Notes: generated by a model from the sequence alone, not told the origin. DNA of 37,471 nt from a virus (IMGVR_UViG_2531839523_000005), one strand, 5' to 3'; counted from the stretch's first letter, positions 6,312-37,471 are shown. Translations and numbers: made by a program.

Positions 6312-6908
6312 TCAGTGGGAGTGGTGGCTGGAGTTTTCGCCATCAGACAACATACTGCCCGTGGCATGGGCATTCCCTTTAATCTCGATATTGCCATGGA
6401 TGGTCGCGGTAACACCTTCACCACCAGAACCCGCCATGCCTCCTTCGTAAATCAGCTTACCCCTGACACGCAGATCTCCGGTAAGTTCGGTTTCCGGTGC
6501 GTCAATCGTGGCTTTCTGTGTTTTCAATACCACATCAGCACCACACTCAATGACAATATGCTCAATGCCGCCCCGGATGGTCAGAGTGTGCGTCTTCCGG
6601 TTGTAGCTGTACTCTGCACCATCAGCAAACCGGGTTCCCCGGATATTTTTGTCACTGAACGGTGGTTTATCGACGTCTGAATACACCGCGCCCAGAATAA
6701 CACCATCCTCGCCGTTGGCATCGAGCAGCACCTCAACCTGCTCCCCCACGTCAGGGAGCCAGTAATCTTTGTTATCCTGGGTATTGCGCTGCAGCACGTT
6801 AAGCCAGTTTGTGCGCAGGTTATCGCATTCAGGCAGACGAACGCGGGCCTGAACCCTGTCGGCATCAACGGCACTGACCGTACCGACCTGACGAGTGACA
6901 CCAGTCAT
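6312..6908 (-). CDS. Baseplate central spike protein (P2 gpV-like / Mu gp45-like)
   Basis: 198 aa; His-rich C-terminal tip …GENSSHHSH. Confidence 0.75.
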   Translation of the reverse strand: MTGVTRQVGTVSAVDADRVQARVRLPECDNLRTNWLNVLQRNTQDNKDYWLPDVGEQVEVLLDANGEDGVILGAVYSDVDKPPFSDKNIRGTRFADGAEYSYNRKTHTLTIRGGIEHIVIECGADVVLKTQKATIDAPETELTGDLRVRGKLIYEGGMAGSGGEGVTATIHGNIEIKGNAHATGSMLSDGENSSHHSH

Positions 6909-8059
6909 TTTTTCTTCTCCTTAATCACCGTCGATGTACTGCCATCCGGGTGATAAACCGTGAGTTTCTGAGTTTTTTGTTTTTTCCCTCTTGTGACTGG
7001 CCCCCGTGCCACTTCCAGCTCTGTGGTGTAGCCGCTGTTACGGTCAAACGCATGGCGGGCAGTGGTTATGAGCCATGGCCCGGATAACTGCCCAAAACCC
7101 ACCAGTTCAATTTTGTTGCCTGCTGTCAGTTGAGGTGTTCCCGTCAGCGTCAGGGAGCCGTTCTGCTGGTATTCGTTATGTCTGGCCAGTGCTGAATCCG
7201 CTTTAATCCGGGCACTGTCCGGGTCGCTGACGCGGCTGTTAACTTTAAGTGAGTCAGCGCTGGTAACCTTACCACCTTTGAGCTTTTTGTCGCTTTCACG
7301 GGTACCACCATCAGCTTCGTAGACGATCAGTTTTTTACTGCTGCTTTTCTGGTGTTTTACCTTTGCAGATTTATAGACCCGGTTGATGGTGTCACGCAGG
7401 GAAAAGCGGGCCACATCCTGCGGTTTTAACTGCCTGACCGGCTCCTGACTGCGCAGTGTGGCCAGATGAGAAAAAATCAGCTGGTCACTGACCACTTTCA
7501 CTGCATAACCATACTCGCTGGCCAGCCGGCGCAGAAAACCCACGTCGGTTTCAGCATACTGGGTCACCCGGTCGATTCTGATGGACTCAATGCTGCCCAC
7601 CAGTTTCAGTCGGTGCTTTCTGGCAATCCGCCCCGCAACAGCTGCCAGCGTGGTGTTCTCAAAACCACGACTGGTTTTAGTCCGCAGGGCACTGTTAACC
7701 GAGGTGGCCACCCCACGGATAGAAACAACGGAAGCGGGCGAACTCACTTCGATCTCGTCTATAGAGAACGTACCGCAGGACAGCAGCTTCTCGCCCTGAT
7801 AGCCCATTTTCAGCGTCAGCGTGTCACCCTTGCCCGGATACCACTTATCCAGCCAGCGGCCATCGGTGTCGTCCAGCTCCACCTCAATGGTATCGGACTC
7901 ATTTTTGATGTTATCGCTCCAGGTCACACGGGTGACATAAGGCGCGATATCAGAGGGGATGTTTTTCTGCAGATACCACAGAGTGAACACCGGTGTCAGC
8001 ACATCGCTGACGCCGGTTAACGCTGATGTGACTTGCGCAGTGCTGTTTATCTCAGCCAT
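6905..8059 (-). CDS. Tail protein (P2 gpD-like / Mu P-like)
   Basis: 384 aa; conserved position after tape measure cluster. Confidence 0.75.
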   Translation of the reverse strand: MAEINSTAQVTSALTGVSDVLTPVFTLWYLQKNIPSDIAPYVTRVTWSDNIKNESDTIEVELDDTDGRWLDKWYPGKGDTLTLKMGYQGEKLLSCGTFSIDEIEVSSPASVVSIRGVATSVNSALRTKTSRGFENTTLAAVAGRIARKHRLKLVGSIESIRIDRVTQYAETDVGFLRRLASEYGYAVKVVSDQLIFSHLATLRSQEPVRQLKPQDVARFSLRDTINRVYKSAKVKHQKSSSKKLIVYEADGGTRESDKKLKGGKVTSADSLKVNSRVSDPDSARIKADSALARHNEYQQNGSLTLTGTPQLTAGNKIELVGFGQLSGPWLITTARHAFDRNSGYTTELEVARGPVTRGKKQKTQKLTVYHPDGSTSTVIKEKKK

Positions 8060-27772: not shown

Positions 27773-27877
27773 CATCGCCCCACAGGAATGCGCTGTGAGC
27801 CGACCAAGGTTCAGTCAGTCTCGCGAGACCTGACCAGACTGCCATATTTTTTAATAATTGTAAAAGGCTTACAGATT

Positions 27878-28642
27878 ATGAAAATGCAGACATTACCCAT
27901 CGTGCCGTGGATTGGTGGCAAACGCCGCCTTGCAAAACACATTCTGCCGCTGTTTCCGGCGCATGAATGTTATGTGGAGCCGTTTTGTGGGGCAGCAGCG
28001 CTCTATTTTCTTAAGACACCCGGCAAGATCGAAGTCATCAATGATATCAACGGTGAACTGGTGAATCTGTACCGGGTGGTAAAGCATCACCTGGAAGAAT
28101 TTGTCCGCCAGTTCAAATGGGCGCTGGTCAGCCGTCAGATCTACAAATGGCTGCAGATCACCCCGGAAGAAACACTGACGGATATCCAGCGTGCGGCACG
28201 GTTCTACTACCTTCAGAAGCAGGCGTTTGGCGGCAAGGTGGCAGAGCACAGCTTCGGTACCTCCACCACATCCCCGCCACGCTTCAACCTGCTACGTATT
28301 GAAGAAGAACTGTCAGCGGCACACCTGCGGCTTTCCAGAACAGTCATAGAACACATGGACTGGCAACAGTGCATTGAGCGTTATGATCGTCCGCACACGC
28401 TGTTCTACTGCGACCCACCGTACCTGGGTACGGAAGGCTATGGTGTGGATTTTCCTGAAGGGAACTACTCGCGGCTGGCAGAGCTGGCCCGGTGCATCAG
28501 AGGAAAAATGATAATTTCGGTGAACGACATCCCGCAGATGCGCGAGGTGTTCACTGGACTGAACATACAGACAGTGAATATCAACTACAGTCTGGCGGGT
28601 AAACCCACGCCGCGCCGTGAACTGCTAATCTGCAACTTCTGA
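27878..28642 (+). CDS. Dam-family N6-adenine DNA methyltransferase (orphan)
   Basis: VPWIGGKRRL, VEPFCGAAALYF, DINGELVNLYRVVK and YCDPPY motifs; start taken at MKMQTLP (27878), the track ORF begins at 27788. Confidence 0.9.
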   Translation: MKMQTLPIVPWIGGKRRLAKHILPLFPAHECYVEPFCGAAALYFLKTPGKIEVINDINGELVNLYRVVKHHLEEFVRQFKWALVSRQIYKWLQITPEETLTDIQRAARFYYLQKQAFGGKVAEHSFGTSTTSPPRFNLLRIEEELSAAHLRLSRTVIEHMDWQQCIERYDRPHTLFYCDPPYLGTEGYGVDFPEGNYSRLAELARCIRGKMIISVNDIPQMREVFTGLNIQTVNINYSLAGKPTPRRELLICNF

Positions 28643-29397: not shown

Positions 29398-29449
29398 ATA
29401 TTTTGAGTCTTTGTAAAAGGTTATCACATATCGCAAAAGAGGTATGCAG

Positions 29450-29758
29450 ATGAGTAAGACGAATGTTTCAAGCTCCGGCAGTCGCATCCTCCGGGTACTC
29501 AAAGCGCTGCGCGGTCATGCCCTGAACGGTATTTCTAACGGTGAACTGGCGACAGCACTGCACGAGTCACCGGCAAACATCAACCGGGCACTCAACACCC
29601 TCATTGAAGAAGGGCTGGCTCTGAAACTGGAGAACGGACGTTTTGCACCGGGCATCCAGTTACTGCAGATCGCCATGGCCCACAGTAACGAGATGGCACG
29701 TGCACAGGATCGTATTAACGAAATTAACCAACGTGTCATTTCAGGTAGTCGTTTGTAA
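29450..29758 (+). CDS. Hypothetical winged-helix-like protein
   Basis: Start taken at second Met (better RBS spacing); …ISNGELATALHESPANINRALNTLIEEGL…. Confidence 0.45.
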   Translation: MSKTNVSSSGSRILRVLKALRGHALNGISNGELATALHESPANINRALNTLIEEGLALKLENGRFAPGIQLLQIAMAHSNEMARAQDRINEINQRVISGSRL

Positions 29759-29768
29759 GGAGTAATCA

Positions 29769-30689
29769 ATGGGACGTACCAAATCACCGATTAACACTGA
29801 ACTGAACGCCGATGTACCGCTGTCGGATGATCTCAACGTCAGCCTGAATGCCATGACACAGCATCGCATGGAGATCATGCAGCAGTTTGGTGATGGACTG
29901 CCTTATGAACGTGAACGCATCGTTCACGAAGCACGTTTTTATATGGCGCAGAGTGCTGAATCTATGTTGGAAGCGGGTAAGCGGCTGATCATCTTAAAAG
30001 AAAATGAACCGCATGGTGATTTCACAAATATTCTGGAAAACGACCTCGGATTAGCACCACAGGTAGCTCGTCGCATGATGCAGGCCAGCGTGAAATTTCT
30101 CGGCAATGGAGATGAACAGCCAAAACGCTCAGCGCTGAGCGTTTTGGGAAAAACCAAGTTATATGAACTGATGGTTCTGGATGACGAAGAACTCGACGCA
30201 TTAGCTGATGGTGGAACCGTCGCCGGTGCAACGCTTGATGATATTGATCGCATGACCAGCCGCGAACTGAAGGCCGCCCTGCGTGAAGCGCGCGAAACCA
30301 ACGCAGCTCAGCAACAGGTGCTTGCCGGAAAGGACGAAAAAATCAACGAACTGGCCACAAAACTGGAGAAGAAATCGCGCCTGCAACCTCCGCCGCCAGA
30401 CGAAGAACTGAAAAAATTGCGGGCGGAAGTGACGGCATTAGCGGTTGAGGCCGAATCGGCTATCGCCGTCCGGCTGTCCAGTGTTTTTGAGACCCTGTGT
30501 GAATACTGCACCAAAAACATGATCGATACCCCCAGAGATTTCATGGCCGGTCTGGTCTGCCAGATTGAACGCAGTGTTCATGCATTACGTGAGACGTTTG
30601 ACCTTGAGGCCGCTCCATCGGGTAACGATGCCCCCGCCTGGCTGACCGAACCGGAACCTGAAATCAACCGACCGGAGGATATGCAGTAA
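29769..30689 (+). CDS. Hypothetical early protein with coiled-coil and Pro-rich linker
   Basis: 306 aa; TAAGGAG RBS. Confidence 0.55.
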   Translation: MGRTKSPINTELNADVPLSDDLNVSLNAMTQHRMEIMQQFGDGLPYERERIVHEARFYMAQSAESMLEAGKRLIILKENEPHGDFTNILENDLGLAPQVARRMMQASVKFLGNGDEQPKRSALSVLGKTKLYELMVLDDEELDALADGGTVAGATLDDIDRMTSRELKAALREARETNAAQQQVLAGKDEKINELATKLEKKSRLQPPPPDEELKKLRAEVTALAVEAESAIAVRLSSVFETLCEYCTKNMIDTPRDFMAGLVCQIERSVHALRETFDLEAAPSGNDAPAWLTEPEPEINRPEDMQ

Positions 30690-31006
30690 TGAATACGAAT
30701 AACACACAAAATACCCTGATGGACAGCCCGGAGGCACTGGGGCACGCACTGTGTAATCTGCTGCCGGAGATGGTGCAGGGTTTCCGCGTGGTGACCCCTT
30801 CCGGTGAAATCTGCGTACCCGCACAGGAGACGCACCCGTTTGTACTGACGATGGAGGTGATGCTGATGCAGCAGATAAGACGTCTGCAGAATCAGTCAGC
30901 ATTACGCCCGGTAGTTGCACCGCAACCGGTAAATACCGTGGTGAAAACCTGCGATGGCGAAACACTGTGCGACCTCGCCAGAAAAATTGCCGCCAGAATC
31001 GGATAA
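30689..31006 (+). CDS. Hypothetical early protein
   Basis: 105 aa; start overlaps upstream stop. Confidence 0.45.
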   Translation: MNTNNTQNTLMDSPEALGHALCNLLPEMVQGFRVVTPSGEICVPAQETHPFVLTMEVMLMQQIRRLQNQSALRPVVAPQPVNTVVKTCDGETLCDLARKIAARIG

Positions 31007-31021
31007 CAGGGAAGACAAGCT

Positions 31022-32791
31022 ATGACCCCGGCACTGACTGAAAAACTGGTTGAAACAGCCCGCGCGGCACGTGACGCGGGGCATGGTAAACGCGGTGCAA
31101 TATACGACGCTGCCTGTGCTGAACTTGGCATGTCCCGCGCCACTCTGCTGCGCAGGCTGAAGGAGGTATCTGTGACTGATAAACGCAAAAACCGCGCCGA
31201 TGCCGGGCGCAGCGCCCTGACCCGCGACGAAGCCGCGCTGATATCTGCCACACTGCGTGAGGCCACCCGCAAGAACGGTAAGCGTCTCTATTCCATCGCA
31301 GATGCAGTGGAAACCCTGCGGGCTAACGGCTTTATCACCGCAGGCAGAACAGATGAAACCACCGGTGAGTTTTTCCCGTTGTCTGAAGATGCCATCAGCC
31401 GTGCTCTGCGTAACTATGGCCTGCACCCGGAACAACTGGATGCCCCTGCACCACATACCGAAGTGGCCAGTCTGCATCCCAATCATGTCTGGCAGATTGA
31501 CGCCTCACTCTGCACGCTTTACTACCTGAGCAATGGACATAAAGGGCTGCAGGTGATGGACAGCGCGAAGTTCTACAAGAACAAGCCCGCTAACCTTGCC
31601 CGTATCGCCAGTGACCGCGTGTGGAGTTACGAGATTACCGACCATGCCAGCGGCTGGATTTACGTTGAGTATGTGACGGGCGCGGAATCAGGTGAGAACC
31701 TGTGTTCTGTGCTTATCAACGCCATGCAGGAGCGTGGCGGCGCAGACGTGCTGCACGGCGTGCCGAAAATACTCTATCTCGACCCCGGCTCGGCAAACAC
31801 CGCGGGTATGACGAAAAACATGTGCCGCTCACTGGGCATCGACCTGATAGCGCACAAGCCGCATAACGCCCGCGCCACCGGACAGGTGGAAAAGGCGCGT
31901 GACATTATCGAACGCAAGCTGGAGCCGGGTCTGAAGTTCCGGCCGGTTCACAGTCTGGAAGAACTCAACGCGCTGGCCGCGAAATGGCGCAGCCACTTTA
32001 ACGCCACGGCTGTTCACAGCCGCCACGGTAAAACCCGCACGGATATCTGGCTGAAGATTACTGCTGAGCAGCTGAAAAAAGCGCCTTCCGTTGAGGTATG
32101 TCGTGAACTGGCTGTGGCGGCACCAGAACTCCGCAAAGTCACGCCAAAACTTCGTGTCTCGTTCCGGGGCACTGAATTTGACGTATCAACGGTACCGGGC
32201 GTACTGGTTGGTGAAAAACTGATGATTACCCGTAACCCATGGCGCAGCGATGTGGCACAGGTGGTTCTGACCGGTGAGGACGGCCACGAGACGTTCTTCC
32301 TGGTCGAAGAGGTCAGAAAGAACAAGTTTGGCTTTGCTGAAGGCGCGGCGGTATTTGGCGAAAGTTACAAAGCCCTGCCGGAAACCCCGGCACAGATGGC
32401 GGCAAAAGAAACCGAAGCGCTGGTTACCGGTACAGACAACGCCGCAGATGCAGCCGCCGCACGCAAGGCGAAGGCGCTGCCGTTCGGCGGGCGGCTTGAC
32501 CCGTATAAACATATCGACGACACCACACTTCCGGCCTATATGCCGAAGCGTGGTCAGGCCTCTGACGTACGCGGGCCGCGCACTGAACAACGTCCCATGA
32601 CTCATGTGGAGGCCGCGAAAGCCCTGCGCGATAAGTTCAGCGCCGACGGCCTTACCTGGACGCCGGAACATTACCGCCAGTTAACGGCACAGTACCCGGA
32701 CGGCGTACCGGAAGCCGCACTGGATGAAGTCATGGCCACGCTGACCACACCGGCCCGCAGCAGTGTTATCAGCATTGTTAACGGCAACTGA
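31022..32791 (+). CDS. DDE transposase (MuA-like transposase A)
   Basis: 589 aa; N-terminal HTH, integrase-core-like HPNHVWQIDASLCTLYY … ILYLDPGSANTAG. Confidence 0.85.
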   Translation: MTPALTEKLVETARAARDAGHGKRGAIYDAACAELGMSRATLLRRLKEVSVTDKRKNRADAGRSALTRDEAALISATLREATRKNGKRLYSIADAVETLRANGFITAGRTDETTGEFFPLSEDAISRALRNYGLHPEQLDAPAPHTEVASLHPNHVWQIDASLCTLYYLSNGHKGLQVMDSAKFYKNKPANLARIASDRVWSYEITDHASGWIYVEYVTGAESGENLCSVLINAMQERGGADVLHGVPKILYLDPGSANTAGMTKNMCRSLGIDLIAHKPHNARATGQVEKARDIIERKLEPGLKFRPVHSLEELNALAAKWRSHFNATAVHSRHGKTRTDIWLKITAEQLKKAPSVEVCRELAVAAPELRKVTPKLRVSFRGTEFDVSTVPGVLVGEKLMITRNPWRSDVAQVVLTGEDGHETFFLVEEVRKNKFGFAEGAAVFGESYKALPETPAQMAAKETEALVTGTDNAADAAAARKAKALPFGGRLDPYKHIDDTTLPAYMPKRGQASDVRGPRTEQRPMTHVEAAKALRDKFSADGLTWTPEHYRQLTAQYPDGVPEAALDEVMATLTTPARSSVISIVNGN

Positions 32792-32801
32792 GGAGGGAAA
32801 C

Positions 32802-33968
32802 ATGCTGGTACTGAAGCAGCAACTGAAAGAGGCCCGTATTCCACAGGCGGTGGTGGCGAGAGCTGTCGATGTTTCTGAGGCCACGCTGGCCCAGATTGTG
32901 AATCATAACGCGTGGCCCCGCACCAGCCCCGGAGAAGTGCGCCGGCGTCTTGCGTCCTGGCTGGAAAGTCAGGGGATTGATACAACGAAGAGTTTTGATG
33001 CTGTACAGGGCGCGGCCACGCCCCGTACAGCGGGTACCACAGATAAAACGAGCCTCAGTGAGGAAGAGAATATGTTACTCAAAAAACAGGTGTTATTTCC
33101 AGCAACCAAAAAAGCGTTTGGTCTTTTCCGTGACCCGTTCGCCGACGAAGCCATGCAGGGTTCTGATGATGTGTTCACCACCCCGGATATTCGCTACGTG
33201 CGTGAGGCGTTGTACCAGACAGCCCGTCATGGTGGGTTTATGGCCGTCATCGGTGAGTCCGGTGCGGGTAAATCCACGCTGCGCCGCGACCTGACTGAAC
33301 GTATCAACCGCGAGAATGCGCCGGTAATTGTTATCGAGCCATACATCATCGCTATGGAAGACAACGATGTGAAAGGGAAAACCCTGAAGGCAGCAGCGAT
33401 TGCCGAAGCCATTATCAGTACCATCGCACCACTGGAAAGCATCAGACGCAGTCAGGACGCCCGCTTTCGCCAGTTGCATCGCGTCCTGAAAGACAGCAGC
33501 CAGGCGGGGTTCAGCCACGTTCTGGTGATTGAGGAGGCCCACAGTCTGCCCATTCCGACACTGAAACACCTCAAACGCTTTTTTGAGCTGGAGTCCGGTT
33601 TCAAAAAACTGCTGTCCATCGTGCTGATTGGCCAGCCGGAACTGGCGACAAAACTGTCTGAACGCAATATGGAAGTCCGTGAAGTCGTTCAGCGCTGTGA
33701 GGTGGTCGAACTTCTGCCTCTGGACAATAACCTTGAAGAGTTTCTGACGTTCAAACTGCAACGGGCCGGTAAACAACTGACGGACATTATGGACGCCAGC
33801 GCAGTGGATGCCATACGTGCCCGCCTGAGCAATCCGGGAAGTCATCGTAAAAATATGGTCAGCCTGCTGTATCCGCTGGCCGTCAGTAACCTGGTAATAG
33901 CCGCCATGAATCTGGCCGCTGAAATCGGGGTTCCACAGGTCAACGCTGACGTTGTCAAAGGGGTTTAA
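32802..33968 (+). CDS. AAA+ ATPase transposition protein B-like
   Basis: Walker A GESGAGKST; N-terminal HTH; AGGAGGG RBS; follows transposase. Confidence 0.8.
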   Translation: MLVLKQQLKEARIPQAVVARAVDVSEATLAQIVNHNAWPRTSPGEVRRRLASWLESQGIDTTKSFDAVQGAATPRTAGTTDKTSLSEEENMLLKKQVLFPATKKAFGLFRDPFADEAMQGSDDVFTTPDIRYVREALYQTARHGGFMAVIGESGAGKSTLRRDLTERINRENAPVIVIEPYIIAMEDNDVKGKTLKAAAIAEAIISTIAPLESIRRSQDARFRQLHRVLKDSSQAGFSHVLVIEEAHSLPIPTLKHLKRFFELESGFKKLLSIVLIGQPELATKLSERNMEVREVVQRCEVVELLPLDNNLEEFLTFKLQRAGKQLTDIMDASAVDAIRARLSNPGSHRKNMVSLLYPLAVSNLVIAAMNLAAEIGVPQVNADVVKGV

Positions 33969-33970
33969 TA

Positions 33971-34240
33971 ATGAAATCCACCACAGGTATCAACCAGCAA
34001 ATCAGCAAAGTGCAGTCAGCCATTATGGCGCTTAAGGCGACGAACACGGATGTACAAAGCATCACCATCAGGGGTAACAAACCTGTCATCCGCGTTTCCC
34101 GGAGTGCGCATTGCATGCGCATGCTTGAGCAGGGAAAGGCCTGTTATCTGTATACCGGTCATGACCACAGGGGACATTTCCGTCAGGGCGTTTTCGAACT
34201 GCACGGCTGTCGCGTCGTGTGGCCGGAATCTTTGTGGTAA
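33971..34240 (+). CDS. Hypothetical early protein
   Basis: 89 aa. Confidence 0.45.
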   Translation: MKSTTGINQQISKVQSAIMALKATNTDVQSITIRGNKPVIRVSRSAHCMRMLEQGKACYLYTGHDHRGHFRQGVFELHGCRVVWPESLW

Positions 34241-34267
34241 TCAGCACAACAGGAGGAGTCATAAAAT

Positions 34268-34798
34268 ATGGCAAAAAGTACAAAAGGGGCAAAACGTATC
34301 AAAGCCGCAGCAGCACTCTGGGTGCCGGGGACACGCGAAGAGGTCATTGAGGGAATCAGACTGCTTGGTGACGCGCAACGTGAACTGGTCAGGGCTGAAA
34401 CAGAAATGAATGACACCATTGGCGACATCACTGCACGTTATGCCCCGCTCACCGAGAGCCTGAAAAAACGCATGGCCGAACTGCAGTCCGGTATCCAGAC
34501 ATGGTGTGAGGCGCACCGTGATGAACTGACCGGCAACGGGAAGGTGAAGTTCGCTAACCTCACCACCGGCGAGGTGCAGTGGCGAAACCGTCCGCCGTCA
34601 GTCAGCATTCGCGGGGCGGATAATGTCATTGAACTGCTGAGACGTCTGGGGCTTGAGCGCTTTATTCGTGTAAAGGAGGAAATAAATAAAGATGCCATTC
34701 TGAATGAAAAAGAGGCTGTGAAAAATATTCCCGGTATTACCATAAAAAGTGATATTGAGGATTTTTCAATAATTCCTTTTGAGCAGGATGTGCAGTAA
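34268..34798 (+). CDS. gam: Gam-like host-nuclease inhibitor (Ku-like DNA-end-binding protein)
   Basis: MAKSTKGAKRIKAAAALWVP… and …ITIKSDIEDFSIIPFEQ match Mu Gam as recalled. Confidence 0.85.
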   Translation: MAKSTKGAKRIKAAAALWVPGTREEVIEGIRLLGDAQRELVRAETEMNDTIGDITARYAPLTESLKKRMAELQSGIQTWCEAHRDELTGNGKVKFANLTTGEVQWRNRPPSVSIRGADNVIELLRRLGLERFIRVKEEINKDAILNEKEAVKNIPGITIKSDIEDFSIIPFEQDVQ

Positions 34799-34895
34799 AC
34801 ACACCACGTTAATTATTTAATAAAAACATTTTCTTTTTTATTCCGGCGTCAGCGCCGCGGGCTTCTGCACGCCGGAAACAGAGGAGAATTAAATT

Positions 34896-35090
34896 ATGAT
34901 ATTTAAATGTATTCAGTGCGAGAGGGATATAACAGCCCTGCGTTTTCACAGCGCCATCGCCGTGATGTCCGGTAAGTATCACATACCTGCAGTACGTGTC
35001 ACCCTGGTCTGCCCGTACTGCAGCCAGCATTTTTCGGCGGACGTGCCCGTCATGGAATTCTCCCGCCCTGACAGGGAGGACGCGCAATGA
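34896..35090 (+). CDS. Small zinc-ribbon-like protein
   Basis: 64 aa with CxxC … CxxC. Confidence 0.45.
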   Translation: MIFKCIQCERDITALRFHSAIAVMSGKYHIPAVRVTLVCPYCSQHFSADVPVMEFSRPDREDAQ

Positions 35091-35359
35091 TTACCCCACA
35101 GGAAGCACGACAGCGCACCCGAACTCTTGTTGAACACTATGTCAACGAGTGTGAATGCCGCGACCTCACCGATGTGAAGCACGTCCTGACGGCGCTAATC
35201 AGCATGGCCACACAGGCCATTGTGGCGACCAACGGAAAGGAGGCTGCCCTGCAGGTACTGATGAACACACTCACCCACACGGCAGAGCATGAGGTGCCGT
35301 ACCGGATGGAAACCACTGCAGAAGGCGGCCTGCACATCACCGTCAGCCGGAAGCACTGA
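35087..35359 (+). CDS. Hypothetical early protein
   Basis: 90 aa. Confidence 0.4.
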   Translation: MITPQEARQRTRTLVEHYVNECECRDLTDVKHVLTALISMATQAIVATNGKEAALQVLMNTLTHTAEHEVPYRMETTAEGGLHITVSRKH

Positions 35360-35368
35360 GGGCGCGGC

Positions 35369-35665
35369 ATGACACGAAACACCGAACTCACCCGCACCGC
35401 CCTCTACCGTCTGGCCCTGCAGCGTTTCGGGCCGGACGCACAGGCCCTGAAACTGGCAGAAGAGGCCGCTGAACTGGCGGCCAGTGCCGCCCGCAACCTG
35501 AACGGACAGGGCAGCGAAAGTGACCTCGCGGCAGAGCTGGCAGACGTGGAAATCATGACAGAGCAACTGCGCCTTCAGGGGATGGACCGGCTGATTGACT
35601 TCCACAAACAGAAAAAACTGGAACGTCTGGCTGCACGACTGGGCGTGATTTACACGAACGAGTAA
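35369..35665 (+). CDS. Small all-alpha protein, possibly MazG-like NTP pyrophosphohydrolase
   Basis: …LAEEAAELAASA…ELADVEIMTEQL… resembles MazG-type motifs; not verified. Confidence 0.4.
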   Translation: MTRNTELTRTALYRLALQRFGPDAQALKLAEEAAELAASAARNLNGQGSESDLAAELADVEIMTEQLRLQGMDRLIDFHKQKKLERLAARLGVIYTNE

Positions 35666-35679
35666 CCGGGAGGCATTCA

Positions 35680-35895
35680 ATGGCTGACATACTCAGGGAA
35701 ATCACCGCATGGACACTGATTCTTACTGGCCTGGCGACATGCCTCAGTGCGGGGGCAGCCCTGGCTGCCCTGCTGATGCACATAACAACACAGTGGTTAT
35801 GGGAAAAGCTTAAAGCAGCATACAGCCTGAAAGAGCTGTCCGACGCTGTCCGGGCATGGAAACGGCAGAAAAATACCGGAGATACAGAACAATGA
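35680..35895 (+). CDS. Small membrane protein
   Basis: 71 aa; one TM helix; GGGAGG RBS. Confidence 0.4.
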   Translation: MADILREITAWTLILTGLATCLSAGAALAALLMHITTQWLWEKLKAAYSLKELSDAVRAWKRQKNTGDTEQ

Positions 35896-36575
35896 CAGAC
35901 CAGAATAAACACATTGAGAAACTGAAAAAGTTGCTGGCGCTGGCCGCATCCGGCAACCCGCACGAGGCCGCTCTGGCACTGCGCCGAGCCCGTAAACTGA
36001 TGGATGTTCACGGCATCACACATTCCGACATTGCTATGAGTGATATTGATGAAACCATCAGTCACTACTGGCCGACAGGCAGTCTCCGTCCACCGCGCTA
36101 CATGCTGGGCCTGATGAACATCATCCGCGAGGTATTTGGTGTTAACTCCATCATTCACCCCGGCACGCATCCGTCTGTGGGGTTCTACGGCAACCGGGAA
36201 CGTGCGGCACTGGCTGCATACACCTGGGAAGTGCTGGCCCGTCAGCTGAAAAAGGCGCGTCAGCAGTATATCAGTGCACAGAACAAAAGAATAAAAACCG
36301 CCACCCGCACCAGCCGTGGAGACCAGTTTGCCGAAGGCTGGGTGCTGGCCGTTATCAGTGAAATACAGTCCTTTGCCCTGACCGATGATGAGCGTGAATT
36401 GATGCAGCAGTGGCTGGAACATAAATACCCGCAGACGCAAACCACCAGGGCGCGTAAACCGGGAAGAAGCCGCAATGGCGACGCCTCGCGCTATGCGGGG
36501 TTTCGTGAAGGGCAGAACGTCAGACTGCACCGCCCGGTCAGTGGGCAGGAACAACAGAAACTGGAGGCCAGATGA
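35892..36575 (+). CDS. DUF2786-like protein
   Basis: Start at MTDQNKHIEKLKKLLALAASGNPHEAALALRRA (35892). Confidence 0.55.
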   Translation: MTDQNKHIEKLKKLLALAASGNPHEAALALRRARKLMDVHGITHSDIAMSDIDETISHYWPTGSLRPPRYMLGLMNIIREVFGVNSIIHPGTHPSVGFYGNRERAALAAYTWEVLARQLKKARQQYISAQNKRIKTATRTSRGDQFAEGWVLAVISEIQSFALTDDERELMQQWLEHKYPQTQTTRARKPGRSRNGDASRYAGFREGQNVRLHRPVSGQEQQKLEAR

Positions 36576-36802
36576 TTACGCTATCAGGTAAAAGCCGGAA
36601 ATTAAAAGCCTGCCGAATATCTGCCAGATACCTTTTTGCCCGCGCCTTTTTTAAGAACGTCAGGCCGGGGATCACAATTGGTGTTATTGCCGGACGCGAA
36701 CAGGTTGAAAAATACATGTCAGGTGCATGGTGGAATAACGACCCTGTCATTGCTGCCCGTAATATTCATATCGAATGGGGAGGTATTCAGAATGACTACT
36801 GA
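36572..36802 (+). CDS. Hypothetical small protein
   Basis: 76 aa. Confidence 0.35.
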   Translation: MITLSGKSRKLKACRISARYLFARAFFKNVRPGITIGVIAGREQVEKYMSGAWWNNDPVIAARNIHIEWGGIQNDY

Positions 36803-36998
36803 AACCATTGTCTGTTTTCTTTTCTGGTATATGTACGCAGGATCATGCAGCGCAAGACTTCATCGTTCCCTGGGCTATGGCAGGCACTACGACACCGCGC
36901 ATTACATCCTGTACATGACCGCCGTCATGTTGTTCTGGCCAGTCACCCTGCCAGCTGCAACCGACATTGTTGCCGACAGACTGAAAAAAAGGAGATGA
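36792..36998 (+). CDS. Small membrane protein
   Basis: Start at MTTETIVCF (36792), GGGGAGG RBS. Confidence 0.4.
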   Translation: MTTETIVCFLFWYMYAGSCSARLHRSLGYGRHYDTAHYILYMTAVMLFWPVTLPAATDIVADRLKKRR

Positions 36999-36999
36999 T

Positions 37000-37177
37000 A
37001 TGCAGAAAAAACGCCTGATACAGCTTATCCATATTGCCCGTAATGAACTGGGTATGGATGAAGACACCTACCGCCAGATGTTACAGGGGCTGACCGGTAA
37101 AGCCTCAACCAAAGGAATGGATACCACACAACTAAACTGCGTGCGTAAGCGTCGTCTCAGCACCGTCTGGCAGATCC
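37000..37177 (+). pseudogene. GemA-like (Mu gp16 / DUF1018-like) gene, interrupted by IS insertion
   Basis: N-terminus …LIQLIHIARNELGMDEDTYRQMLQGLTGKASTKGM… fits the GemA pattern; reading frame runs into the IS terminus and stops after 65 codons. Confidence 0.5.
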
Positions 37178-37471
37178 TGAAATTCCTGAGAGAATAGTGG
37201 ACACCAAATATGGTGGACGCTATTCATGAAATCATTAACCGCAGTGCGTAAAAAAAGCCCTAATTATCCCGTTGAGTTCAAAATCAAAATGGTGGAACTC
37301 TCGCATCGACCAGAGATCTCCGTAGCGCAACTCGCTCGTGAGCATGGGATCAACGATAATTTGCTGTTCAAGTGGCGCCAGTACTGGCGCGAAGGAAAAC
37401 TACGTCCTCCTTCAACAACAGAAAACAACGTGCCTGAGCTGCTCCCGATAACACTTGATGCCGAAGATGTT
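37178..37471 (+). mobile_element. IS3-family insertion sequence, left end (continues beyond window)
   Basis: Terminus TGAAATTCCTGAGAGAATAGTGGACACC resembles the IS3 left inverted repeat (AATAGTGGACAC core) as recalled. Confidence 0.6.
37226..37471 (+). CDS. IS3-family transposase OrfA (HTH), 3' end beyond window
   Basis: MKSLTAVRKKSPNYPVEFKIKMVELSHRPEISVAQLAREHGINDNLLFKWRQYW…. Confidence 0.65.
   Translation, partial: MKSLTAVRKKSPNYPVEFKIKMVELSHRPEISVAQLAREHGINDNLLFKWRQYWREGKLRPPSTTENNVPELLPITLDAEDV

Follow-up and report, generated by a model that had tools for sequence, protein, structure and literature searches.

What is the function of the genes packed between the transposition gene B and gemA in the viral genome IMGVR_UViG_2531839523_000005? 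To address this question, we analyzed a 37,471-nucleotide (nt) stretch of this genome (here called the window), focusing on the gene block at positions 33971 to 36998. A preliminary description of the sequence had likened this block to the host-interaction region of phage Mu and had expected anti-defense functions there. Our analyses indicate that the interval is very probably the accessory, distal portion of the early operon in a BcepMu-like transposable prophage from Escherichia coli and thus the counterpart of the semi-essential region of Mu.

The E. coli element belongs to the transposable prophages of the BcepMu-like (Bcepmuvirus) type and is already present in public databases. Escherichia phage PhiKM, which belongs to the genus Bcepmuvirus, matched positions 33971 to 36998 at 98.6% identity over the whole interval, and the transposase was 68% identical to those of BcepMu and phiE255 and 57% identical to those of Pseudomonas B3-like phages. 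The B protein was 94% identical to its counterparts in the Klebsiella KP12 and Salmonella relatives and 55 to 60% identical to those of BcepMu, phiE255, and H72. When complete E. coli genomes were searched, the interval was found in 629 of 5,426, almost always on the chromosome, and at least 80% of it was covered in 619. Since the prophage is carried by about one in nine of the complete E. coli genomes searched, including sequence type 131 (ST131), any host-directed early activity that it encodes would be widespread in clinical strains. The block is an already sequenced and annotated member of a familiar class, namely, the accessory early regions of transposable phages.

Nine plus-strand genes, consisting of gam and eight small open reading frames (ORFs), are tightly packed between B and gemA, such that ~95% of the interval is coding (Table 1). 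A Shine-Dalgarno-like motif is present 5 to 10 nt upstream of each of the nine start codons. The first gene, orf1, starts 2 nt past the stop codon of B; 4-nt ATGA overlaps connect orf3 to orf4, orf6 to orf7, and orf7 to orf8; and orf8 and orf9 share 11 nt. The largest gap, which is also the sole sizeable spacer in the block, is the 97 nt between gam and orf3. No excess of promoter-like or terminator-like sites was detected in a scan of positions 33500 to 37471, which contained fewer of them than shuffled sequences did. This layout is that of a single translationally coupled operon.

Table 1. Positions of genes and other features in the early region of the prophage, numbered from the first nucleotide of the window (aa, amino acids; NTP, nucleoside triphosphate; TM, transmembrane)
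Feature	Position	Strand	Size	Description
Transposase A	31022-32791			Upstream of the block
B	32802-33968	+		Transposition protein (AAA+/ExeA-type); RefSeq 'ExeA family protein'; upstream anchor
orf1	33971-34240	+	89 aa	RefSeq 'HI_1482 family protein'; phrog_2041 at 1e-36
gam	34268-34798	+	176 aa	Mu Gam-type (Ku-like) DNA-end-binding protein, by homology; phrog_491 at 2e-73
T-run and imperfect hairpin	34828-34889	+		Conserved; in the gam-orf3 spacer; Shine-Dalgarno sequence of orf3 paired with the outer stem
orf3	34896-35090	+	64 aa	CxxC...CxxC zinc-ribbon protein; phrog_3401 at 1.2e-40
orf4	35087-35359	+	90 aa	Variable accessory gene; phrog_3691
orf5	35369-35665	+	98 aa	Likely minimal MazG-like (all-alpha) NTP pyrophosphohydrolase; WP_001295929.1
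orf6	35680-35895	+	71 aa	Single-TM peptide; phrog_3958
orf7	35892-36575	+	227 aa	Basic; DUF2786 helical hairpin and DUF7168 alpha/beta core
orf8	36572-36802	+	76 aa	Basic; exchangeable slot; phrog_3681
orf9	36792-36998	+	68 aa	Two hydrophobic segments; always directly 5' of gemA; phrog_6436
gemA, 5' part	37000-37143	+	48 codons	First 48 codons only; downstream anchor
IS66-family insertion sequence, end	37144-37471			Interrupts gemA after codon 48; starts at 37144/37145

Each ORF matched one PHROG family end to end (E values of 1e-34 to 2e-77), and the RefSeq gene calls in relatives comprised the identical nine-gene set, with the names 'HI_1482 family protein,' Gam, 'nucleoside triphosphate pyrophosphohydrolase family protein,' and DUF2786 and five hypothetical proteins. 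All of the ORFs were intact across 28 to 48 distinct relatives, with ratios of nonsynonymous to synonymous substitution rates (dN/dS) of 0.04 to 0.38. These ratios were 0.04 for gam, 0.09 for orf3, 0.10 for orf7, 0.16 for orf1, and 0.18 for orf5, with orf8 and orf9 (0.33 each) and orf4 (0.38) at the upper end. Nucleotide diversity ranged from 0.011 to 0.033 for B, orf1, gam, orf3, orf5, and orf7 and was higher at orf4 (0.077), orf8 (0.105), and orf9 (0.283). The nine plus-strand ORFs are real genes rather than chance ORFs.

These results agree with the preliminary description, and with RefSeq, on the number and positions of the genes downstream of B. All of the ORFs are conserved in relatives, and none of the nine clearly matches a replication housekeeping function. 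The Gam, CxxC zinc-ribbon, and DUF2786-like assignments made there were borne out by the analyses given below. The MazG-like assignment was supported by motif and PHROG, but the Pfam matches were subthreshold. Of the two proposed single-pass membrane proteins, the orf6 product has one TM segment, whereas the orf9 product has two hydrophobic segments. The profile and structure searches suggested for each ORF yielded assignments for Gam and orf7, a likely one for orf5, and a probable one for orf1, while five ORFs were left without a function. Queries of the PDB with single sequences (orf1, orf3, orf5, orf7, and orf8) returned nothing meaningful, and profile queries (orf1, orf4, and orf7) returned nothing.

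The block occupies the same place as the Mu semi-essential region (kil, gp6-gp9, gam, and gp11-gp14), i.e., after A/B and before gemA/mor on one strand. Gam and GemA are common to both phages by BLAST and PHROG comparison, and the first gene is probably of the Kil type in both. The proposed equivalence to the Mu region was thus upheld by position, by Gam (61.5% identical over 169 aa), and by the probable Kil relative. In contrast, the other seven ORFs had no PHROG or BLAST match to gp6-gp9 or gp11-gp14, the prophage has a transposase of the Tn552/rve BcepMu type, and its late genes are encoded on the opposite strand. From this layout and the biology of Mu, we infer that the block would be transcribed with the transposase genes from an early promoter and translated as a coupled string. 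It would then constitute a package for host takeover and support of DNA metabolism, at work during the initial minutes that follow induction or infection. By homology, Gam would shield DNA ends from RecBCD, the orf1 product would probably be a small protein of the Kil type, harming the host cell or arresting it, and the orf5 product would hydrolyze some NTP or alarmone.

A different picture emerged from comparison with BcepMu (gp03-gp07) and phiE255 (gp34-gp38). The A-B...GemA-Mor frame, a small post-B gene, and a pyrophosphatase gene are in common with these phages, but only B and GemA gave BLAST matches, and genes for DUF3164, HU-like, and gp03 proteins replace gam, orf3, orf4, and orf6 to orf9. 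Even the pyrophosphatase (phrog_5658) and the post-B gp07 (phrog_2043) of these phages belong to PHROGs different from those of the prophage. The record of BcepMu gp03 carries the note 'single-stranded DNA binding protein.' The closer relatives share more of the block. The interval reads orf1, DUF3164, orf3, orf5, a 128-aa ORF, orf8, and orf9 in the Klebsiella KP12 contig and orf1, DUF3164, orf3, orf5, orf7, and orf9 in the Salmonella enterica prophage L051. Both have the backbone of orf1, the hairpin with orf3, orf5, orf9, GemA, and Mor in common with the E. coli prophage, albeit with DUF3164 instead of Gam and without orf4 and orf6. In Pseudomonas H72, Gam is followed directly by an orf7 homologue; in an Aeromonas prophage with true MuA/MuB, the interval consists of Kil, DUF3164, and an orf7 homologue. 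Across these relatives, a backbone made up of a Kil-like gene, Gam or DUF3164, the hairpin with orf3, the MazG-like gene, often orf7, and orf9 is retained, while a few slots turn over. The gene set differs from those of both Mu and BcepMu, and its placement brings an unstudied set into a familiar framework that leaves the understanding of Mu-like phages unchanged.

The gam product matched PF07352 with an E value of 1.1e-40 (139.5 bits versus a cutoff of 28.3; profile positions 1 to 148 of 149). It is a true Mu Gam homologue and, judged by this homology, very probably attaches to free double-strand DNA ends and denies RecBCD access to them. Mu Gam blocks RecBCD loading and also licenses the Gabija system, and Mu Gam together with GemA reportedly renders phages visible to Gabija (bioRxiv 10.1101/2025.08.30.673261). 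Since the products of such genes can expose the phage to Gabija, these genes stand on both sides of the arms race. In different BcepMu-like prophages, the slot of gam is occupied by the gene for the DUF3164 protein (phrog_846; L047 9737-10348, L051 3843-4454, and L046 10423-11040). This shared slot suggests that Gam and DUF3164 are functional alternatives.

We next consider orf1, which is the first gene after B, as kil is in Mu, and whose product falls inside the size range of about 75 to 110 aa expected of the Kil family. Mu kil is a host-killing gene (cited in PMC3961180). When the orf1 product was compared with 38,880 PHROG families, the next-best matches after its own family were two Kil families, which ranked second and fourth. 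The first of these (phrog_6381) matched with an E value of 0.023, with 8 of its 11 members matching orf1 (best E value, 0.0027), while the second (phrog_2743), which is the best match of Mu Kil itself, aligned end to end with an E value of 0.21. Comparison of orf1 with the Mu and Aeromonas Kil proteins by hhalign gave E values of 0.0015 to 0.0045 and probabilities of 8 to 17%, which are low because the alignments are shallow. The alignment of the three proteins is colinear, with common basic-P-[VI]-[IL]-x-[IV] and C-terminal L-x-G-C-x-[VI]-x-W motifs. No Pfam match was found for orf1 at E values up to 0.1, including none to PF26843 (Kil_protein). Its distribution, in the Enterobacterales, is narrow; in the Mu-like prophage of Aeromonas, two other small genes lie between B and Kil. 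On balance, these sequence comparisons lead us to favor the view that orf1 encodes a distant homologue of Mu Kil. A relationship to BcepMu gp07/H72 gp11 (phrog_2043) was rejected, as the hhalign probability was 2.8% and only the C-terminal pattern was similar.

The orf5 product matched three PHROGs annotated as NTP pyrophosphohydrolases (phrog_2245 at 5.5e-34 and the others at 1.3e-4 and 4e-3), and 1,625 relatives were found at E values up to 1e-3 in a representative library. The metal-binding motif of this superfamily, EExxE(12-28)ExxD, is intact (E31-E32-A-A-E35, 20 residues, E56-L-A-D59); in a 46-sequence alignment, E31 never varies, and conservation is at least 90% at E32, E35, E56, and D59. 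Nevertheless, orf5 fell below the Pfam threshold for PRA-PH (PF01503; 15.5 bits versus a cutoff of 21.3) and did not itself match Pfam MazG (PF03819), which was matched by 2 of the 46 homologues at 2e-4. The AlphaFold2 model is all-helical, with a predicted local distance difference test (pLDDT) score of 96.3, and its best Foldseek matches in the PDB were almost all NTP pyrophosphohydrolases, all with E values of at least 0.12 and TM scores of ~0.5. These included DCTPP1 (probability, 0.98), integron iMazG, RS21-C6, HisN2, and HisE, as well as Bacillus MazG, AF1178, YpjD, and cyanophage S-2L MazZ. A search of the PDB with the orf5 sequence profile recovered the same NTP pyrophosphohydrolases at E values of 0.07 to 0.4, which are below significance. 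Among longer orf5 homologues, a Pfam scan for informative fusions produced weak zinc-ribbon and helix-turn-helix matches only. The orf5 product is likely a member of the all-alpha NTP pyrophosphohydrolase superfamily, and its sequence strongly suggests that it acts on the nucleotide pool, with noncanonical deoxynucleoside triphosphates or (p)ppGpp as candidate substrates.

A search of the literature on DUF2786, DUF7168, the RefSeq accessions, and BcepMu-like E. coli prophages returned no functional study and one entry in a table from transposon-directed insertion site sequencing (TraDIS). In E. coli ST131 strain NCTC 13441, insertions in the gene for the identical orf5 protein were depleted in the presence of colicin E9 and ethylenediaminetetraacetic acid (EDTA) (log fold change, -1.96; q = 9.7e-9) (PMC6351738). 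This protein is the only entry in the table that lacks an envelope-related annotation, and the authors are silent on it (PMC6351738).

The other gene with a defined domain structure is orf7, for which we used the start at 35892 chosen by annotators rather than the mechanical ORF start at 35856. In the longer, 239-aa reading from the mechanical start, residues 20 to 56 matched DUF2786 (PF10979; E = 4.8e-11; 42.9 bits versus a cutoff of 23.9), and residues 58 to 201 matched DUF7168 (PF23771; E = 1.1e-25; 90.4 bits versus a cutoff of 25.5). All 26 aligned homologues are colinear, with both domains in the usual order, and these matches identify orf7 as a true DUF2786-DUF7168 protein at the sequence level. 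The same alignment revealed a conserved basic stretch (Q-N-K-R-I-K..T) in which K132 and R133 are nearly invariant and K135 and T138 are invariant. The AlphaFold2 model (pLDDT, 86.7) consists of an N-terminal helical hairpin, a beta-alpha-beta-beta-alpha core, and further helices. Its core resembles a KH domain, although other small alpha/beta folds scored nearly as well. We rejected membership in the KH domain family, given that the GXXG loop is absent, the equivalent segment being YWPTGSLRPPRY, and that the family alignment shows no conservation of this loop. The core differs from KH domains further in lacking sequence similarity to them and in having a loop where the first KH helix would be. 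The relationship predicted by the model is one of fold resemblance, not of membership.

Foldseek searches of viral models found the whole orf7 architecture in many unrelated phages, including Delftia PhiW-14, Sinorhizobium phiM12, Serratia MTx, Mycobacterium Hawkeye, and Bacillus SP-15, and all of these proteins are uncharacterized. In addition, orf7 recurs in the early regions of three lineages of transposable phages (BcepMu-like, B3-like, and true Mu-like). In phage AXL1, the genes listed for the module of DNA replication and repair include one for a DUF2786 protein (PMC9206674). Our guess is that the orf7 product is a nucleic acid- or protein-binding accessory of replication or regulation.

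Several points weigh against reading the block as an early operon segment with these roles. Its membership in the early operon is inferred from layout and the analogy to Mu, and five of the nine genes are without a functional lead, such that a likely role can be assigned to three or four of the nine only. The statistics of the Kil link are weak (HMMER E values of 0.003 to 0.02, hhalign probabilities below 20%, and no match to Pfam Kil_protein), and orf5 misses the Pfam gathering thresholds and has Foldseek E values above 0.1. Lastly, gemA is broken by an insertion sequence (IS), so the prophage is possibly defective, and its genes may now be irrelevant to the phage life cycle. The leads that the block offers are a probable Kil-type toxin (orf1), a MazG-type enzyme (orf5), orf7, the hairpin with orf3, and three or four slots in which genes are swapped.

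We then asked whether the backbone genes might instead form a support module for replication or transposition, with Gam or DUF3164, orf3, orf5, and orf7 acting on phage DNA or on the supply of nucleotides so that replicative transposition is efficient, without being aimed at host immunity. Such a module would fit the adjacency of orf7 to Gam or DUF3164 in the early regions of all three transposable-phage lineages, the company that DUF2786 keeps in phage AXL1, and the basic character, conserved basic motif, and KH-like core of orf7. It would also fit the presence of HU-like, pyrophosphatase, and gp03 genes in the same interval of BcepMu and the strong purifying selection on the conserved genes. 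However, the DNA-binding or enzymatic roles of orf3 and orf7 are only putative, and the KH-like core of orf7 is devoid of the GXXG loop with which KH domains bind nucleic acid. Moreover, the gene content between B and gemA is nearly wholly different among Mu, BcepMu, and the PhiKM-like prophage, which argues against an indispensable mechanistic role. We regard this explanation as possible but rather unlikely.

Beyond the backbone, the block contains genes that vary from strain to strain. The 41 homologues of orf4 that we identified derive, where named, from E. coli, with the exception of one partial Pseudomonas aeruginosa record, and orf4 is absent from the Klebsiella and Salmonella relatives. 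Full-length 90-aa alleles of orf4 are as little as 68% identical, with several N-terminal types preceding a conserved C terminus, and its diversity is 2 to 3 times that of its neighbors. Positive selection on orf4 was nonetheless rejected, since dN/dS was 0.37 in each half of the gene; its evolution appears relaxed or diversified instead. The orf6 product has one clear TM segment (residues 14 to 32; Kyte-Doolittle score, 1.98), and its gene shows presence/absence variation among E. coli strains, being missing in the strain 8178 variant and also in the Klebsiella and Salmonella relatives. The orf8 product is 77% identical in KP12 and absent in the Salmonella relative; in some E. coli strains, a 135-aa zinc-ribbon/coiled-coil ORF is found in its slot instead (L056 4101-4704 and L055 3878-4313 span the slot region). 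Two allelic types of orf9 are ~40% identical and have the same two-hydrophobic-segment architecture, and the orf9 products of KP12 and the Salmonella relative are 39 to 45% identical. It is more likely that orf9 encodes a two-segment than a single-pass membrane protein. Thus, orf4, orf6, orf8, and orf9 encode lineage-specific small or membrane proteins in slots subject to gain, loss, and swapping. Such slots are a natural place for strain-specific functions, although dN/dS never exceeded 0.4.

This variability bears on whether the block is an anti-defense island, in which most of the small ORFs would inhibit host immunity early and the orf4, orf6, orf8, and orf9 slots would track the defense repertoire of E. 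coli. The position is equivalent to the host-interaction region of Mu, and antagonism of RecBCD is established for Mu Gam. In addition, there is a precedent for orf5 in Atd1 of Pectobacterium phage PcCB7V, a MazG-like phage enzyme that depletes (p)ppGpp and thereby blunts TIR-STING toxicity, protecting against it (bioRxiv 10.1101/2022.06.09.495361). Likened here by description alone, both proteins have a short phage MazG-type catalytic domain; unlike Atd1, orf5 is a single-domain protein of 98 aa that falls under the Pfam MazG threshold. The near exclusivity of orf4 to E. coli records, the presence or absence of orf6, the swapping of orf8, and the two deep alleles of orf9 point in the same direction. 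On the other hand, none of the ten ORFs that were scanned matched PADLOC (defense systems) or NCBIfam, there being no anti-defense profile library among those searched, and dN/dS values below 0.4 throughout gave no sign of positive selection. The backbone genes orf1, orf3, orf5, and orf7 are strongly constrained and shared between genera, which fits conserved host or phage targets better than strain-specific immunity. Furthermore, genes of the DNA metabolism type (pyrophosphatase, DUF3164, HU-like, and gp03) lie in the equivalent interval of BcepMu; therefore, DNA metabolism accessories are as well indicated as anti-defense functions. We consider an island of this kind unlikely. The anti-defense role expected in the preliminary description is in this sense partly supported, in that the support is limited to Gam and possibly the MazG-like orf5.

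The block also contains a hairpin, together with a T-run, in its only sizeable spacer, directly upstream of orf3. Its minimum free energy was -29.5 kcal/mol (z = -4.35), and none of 200 shuffled sequences folded as well. The hairpin is nearly invariant in the Klebsiella and Salmonella relatives, although the upstream gene is different there and orf3 is only 54% identical. Its two variable bases sit in a bulge and in the loop. In one stem pair, a change from C-G to U-A is compensated, and several E. coli variants have single-sided breaks. Rfam contained no credible family, either for the whole window at gathering thresholds or for the hairpin at permissive thresholds, and the shape of the hairpin is not terminator-like. 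The element may function as an operator of translation, as a site of RNA processing, or, at the DNA level, as a protein-binding site.

The four cysteines of orf3 (C5, C8, C39, and C42) are invariant in an alignment with a Klebsiella homologue (50% identical) and Mu Com. A Pfam search at E values up to 0.1 returned subthreshold zinc-finger matches only. We rejected orf3 as a member of the Mu Com family, as BLASTP gave an E value of 0.11 and Com was absent from these Pfam matches; the likeness is limited to the two CxxC knuckles, which are spaced 30 residues apart in orf3 versus 16 in Com. A 70-aa E. coli protein (P0275) is an in-frame fusion of the orf3 N terminus to the orf4 C terminus, i.e., a deletion variant of the orf3/orf4 junction. 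Combining these elements, one could envisage that the hairpin masks the orf3 ribosome-binding site and, together with the zinc-ribbon protein, acts as a Com-like posttranscriptional switch gating the distal early genes, and that, at the same time, the exchangeable slots hold undescribed E. coli-specific counterdefense or exclusion factors. We view this combined scenario as speculative and improbable.

The small membrane proteins also raise the question of whether orf6, orf9, and the variable genes are active in the resident prophage and benefit or protect the lysogen, as cargo for lysogenic conversion or superinfection exclusion. Presence/absence and allelic variation would be expected of such cargo, and the depletion of orf5 insertions by TraDIS (PMC6351738) hints at an effect in a lysogen. 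Against this idea, the genes are embedded in the early lytic operon, have no promoter-like site to themselves, and would, by analogy to Mu, be repressed in the lysogen, while the TraDIS signal concerns one unvalidated gene and could stem from polarity of the transposon or from read-out. We consider this explanation very unlikely.

That certain small ORFs are chance ORFs in GC-rich DNA rather than genes, or that the true genes lie on the minus strand, as might be supposed from the long minus-strand ORFs at 35553-36554 (333 aa), 35195-35680 (161 aa), and 34809-35087 (92 aa) and from a minus-strand coding sequence in place of orf3 in the PhiKM GenBank record (PhiKM 6839-7060, equivalent to window positions 34809-35030), can be dismissed as having almost no probability, given that every plus-strand ORF has a Shine-Dalgarno motif and an end-to-end PHROG match, is intact in all distinct relatives, and has a dN/dS below 0.4 in its own frame. 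Since the plus-strand ORFs are intact and under this constraint, the long minus-strand ORFs are artifacts. The minus-strand candidates, including the one annotated in PhiKM, were ruled out by PHROG matches, codon-level selection, Shine-Dalgarno motifs, and RefSeq. RefSeq calls orf3 on the plus strand, and its homologues at 54% identity retain the four cysteines, so the PhiKM hypothetical protein is likely a misannotation.

Returning to the prophage as a BcepMu-like element, we examined the regions flanking the block. The gemA fragment matched PF06252 at 3.4e-7 over profile positions 1 to 30 of 119, whereas gp16/GemA has 149 aa in the RefSeq annotation of intact relatives, with Mor next in line before the prophage end or host DNA. 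The IS segment that interrupts gemA is 99.4% identical to IS66-family transposase regions of Stx2 phages, and the PhiKM match ends exactly there. This IS-interrupted copy may be defective and unable to switch on the middle and late genes. Neither mor nor the right end of the prophage is within the window, mor being displaced in the IS-bearing copy.

On the opposite side, long minus-strand ORFs at 326-26267, which are annotated as tail and baseplate genes in PhiKM, are divergent from the plus-strand early operon at 29444-37197. This arrangement in divergent arms is common to the prophage and BcepMu, whereas Mu is organized in a single direction. A gene for a Dam-type methylase (27788-28642) is located between the two arms.

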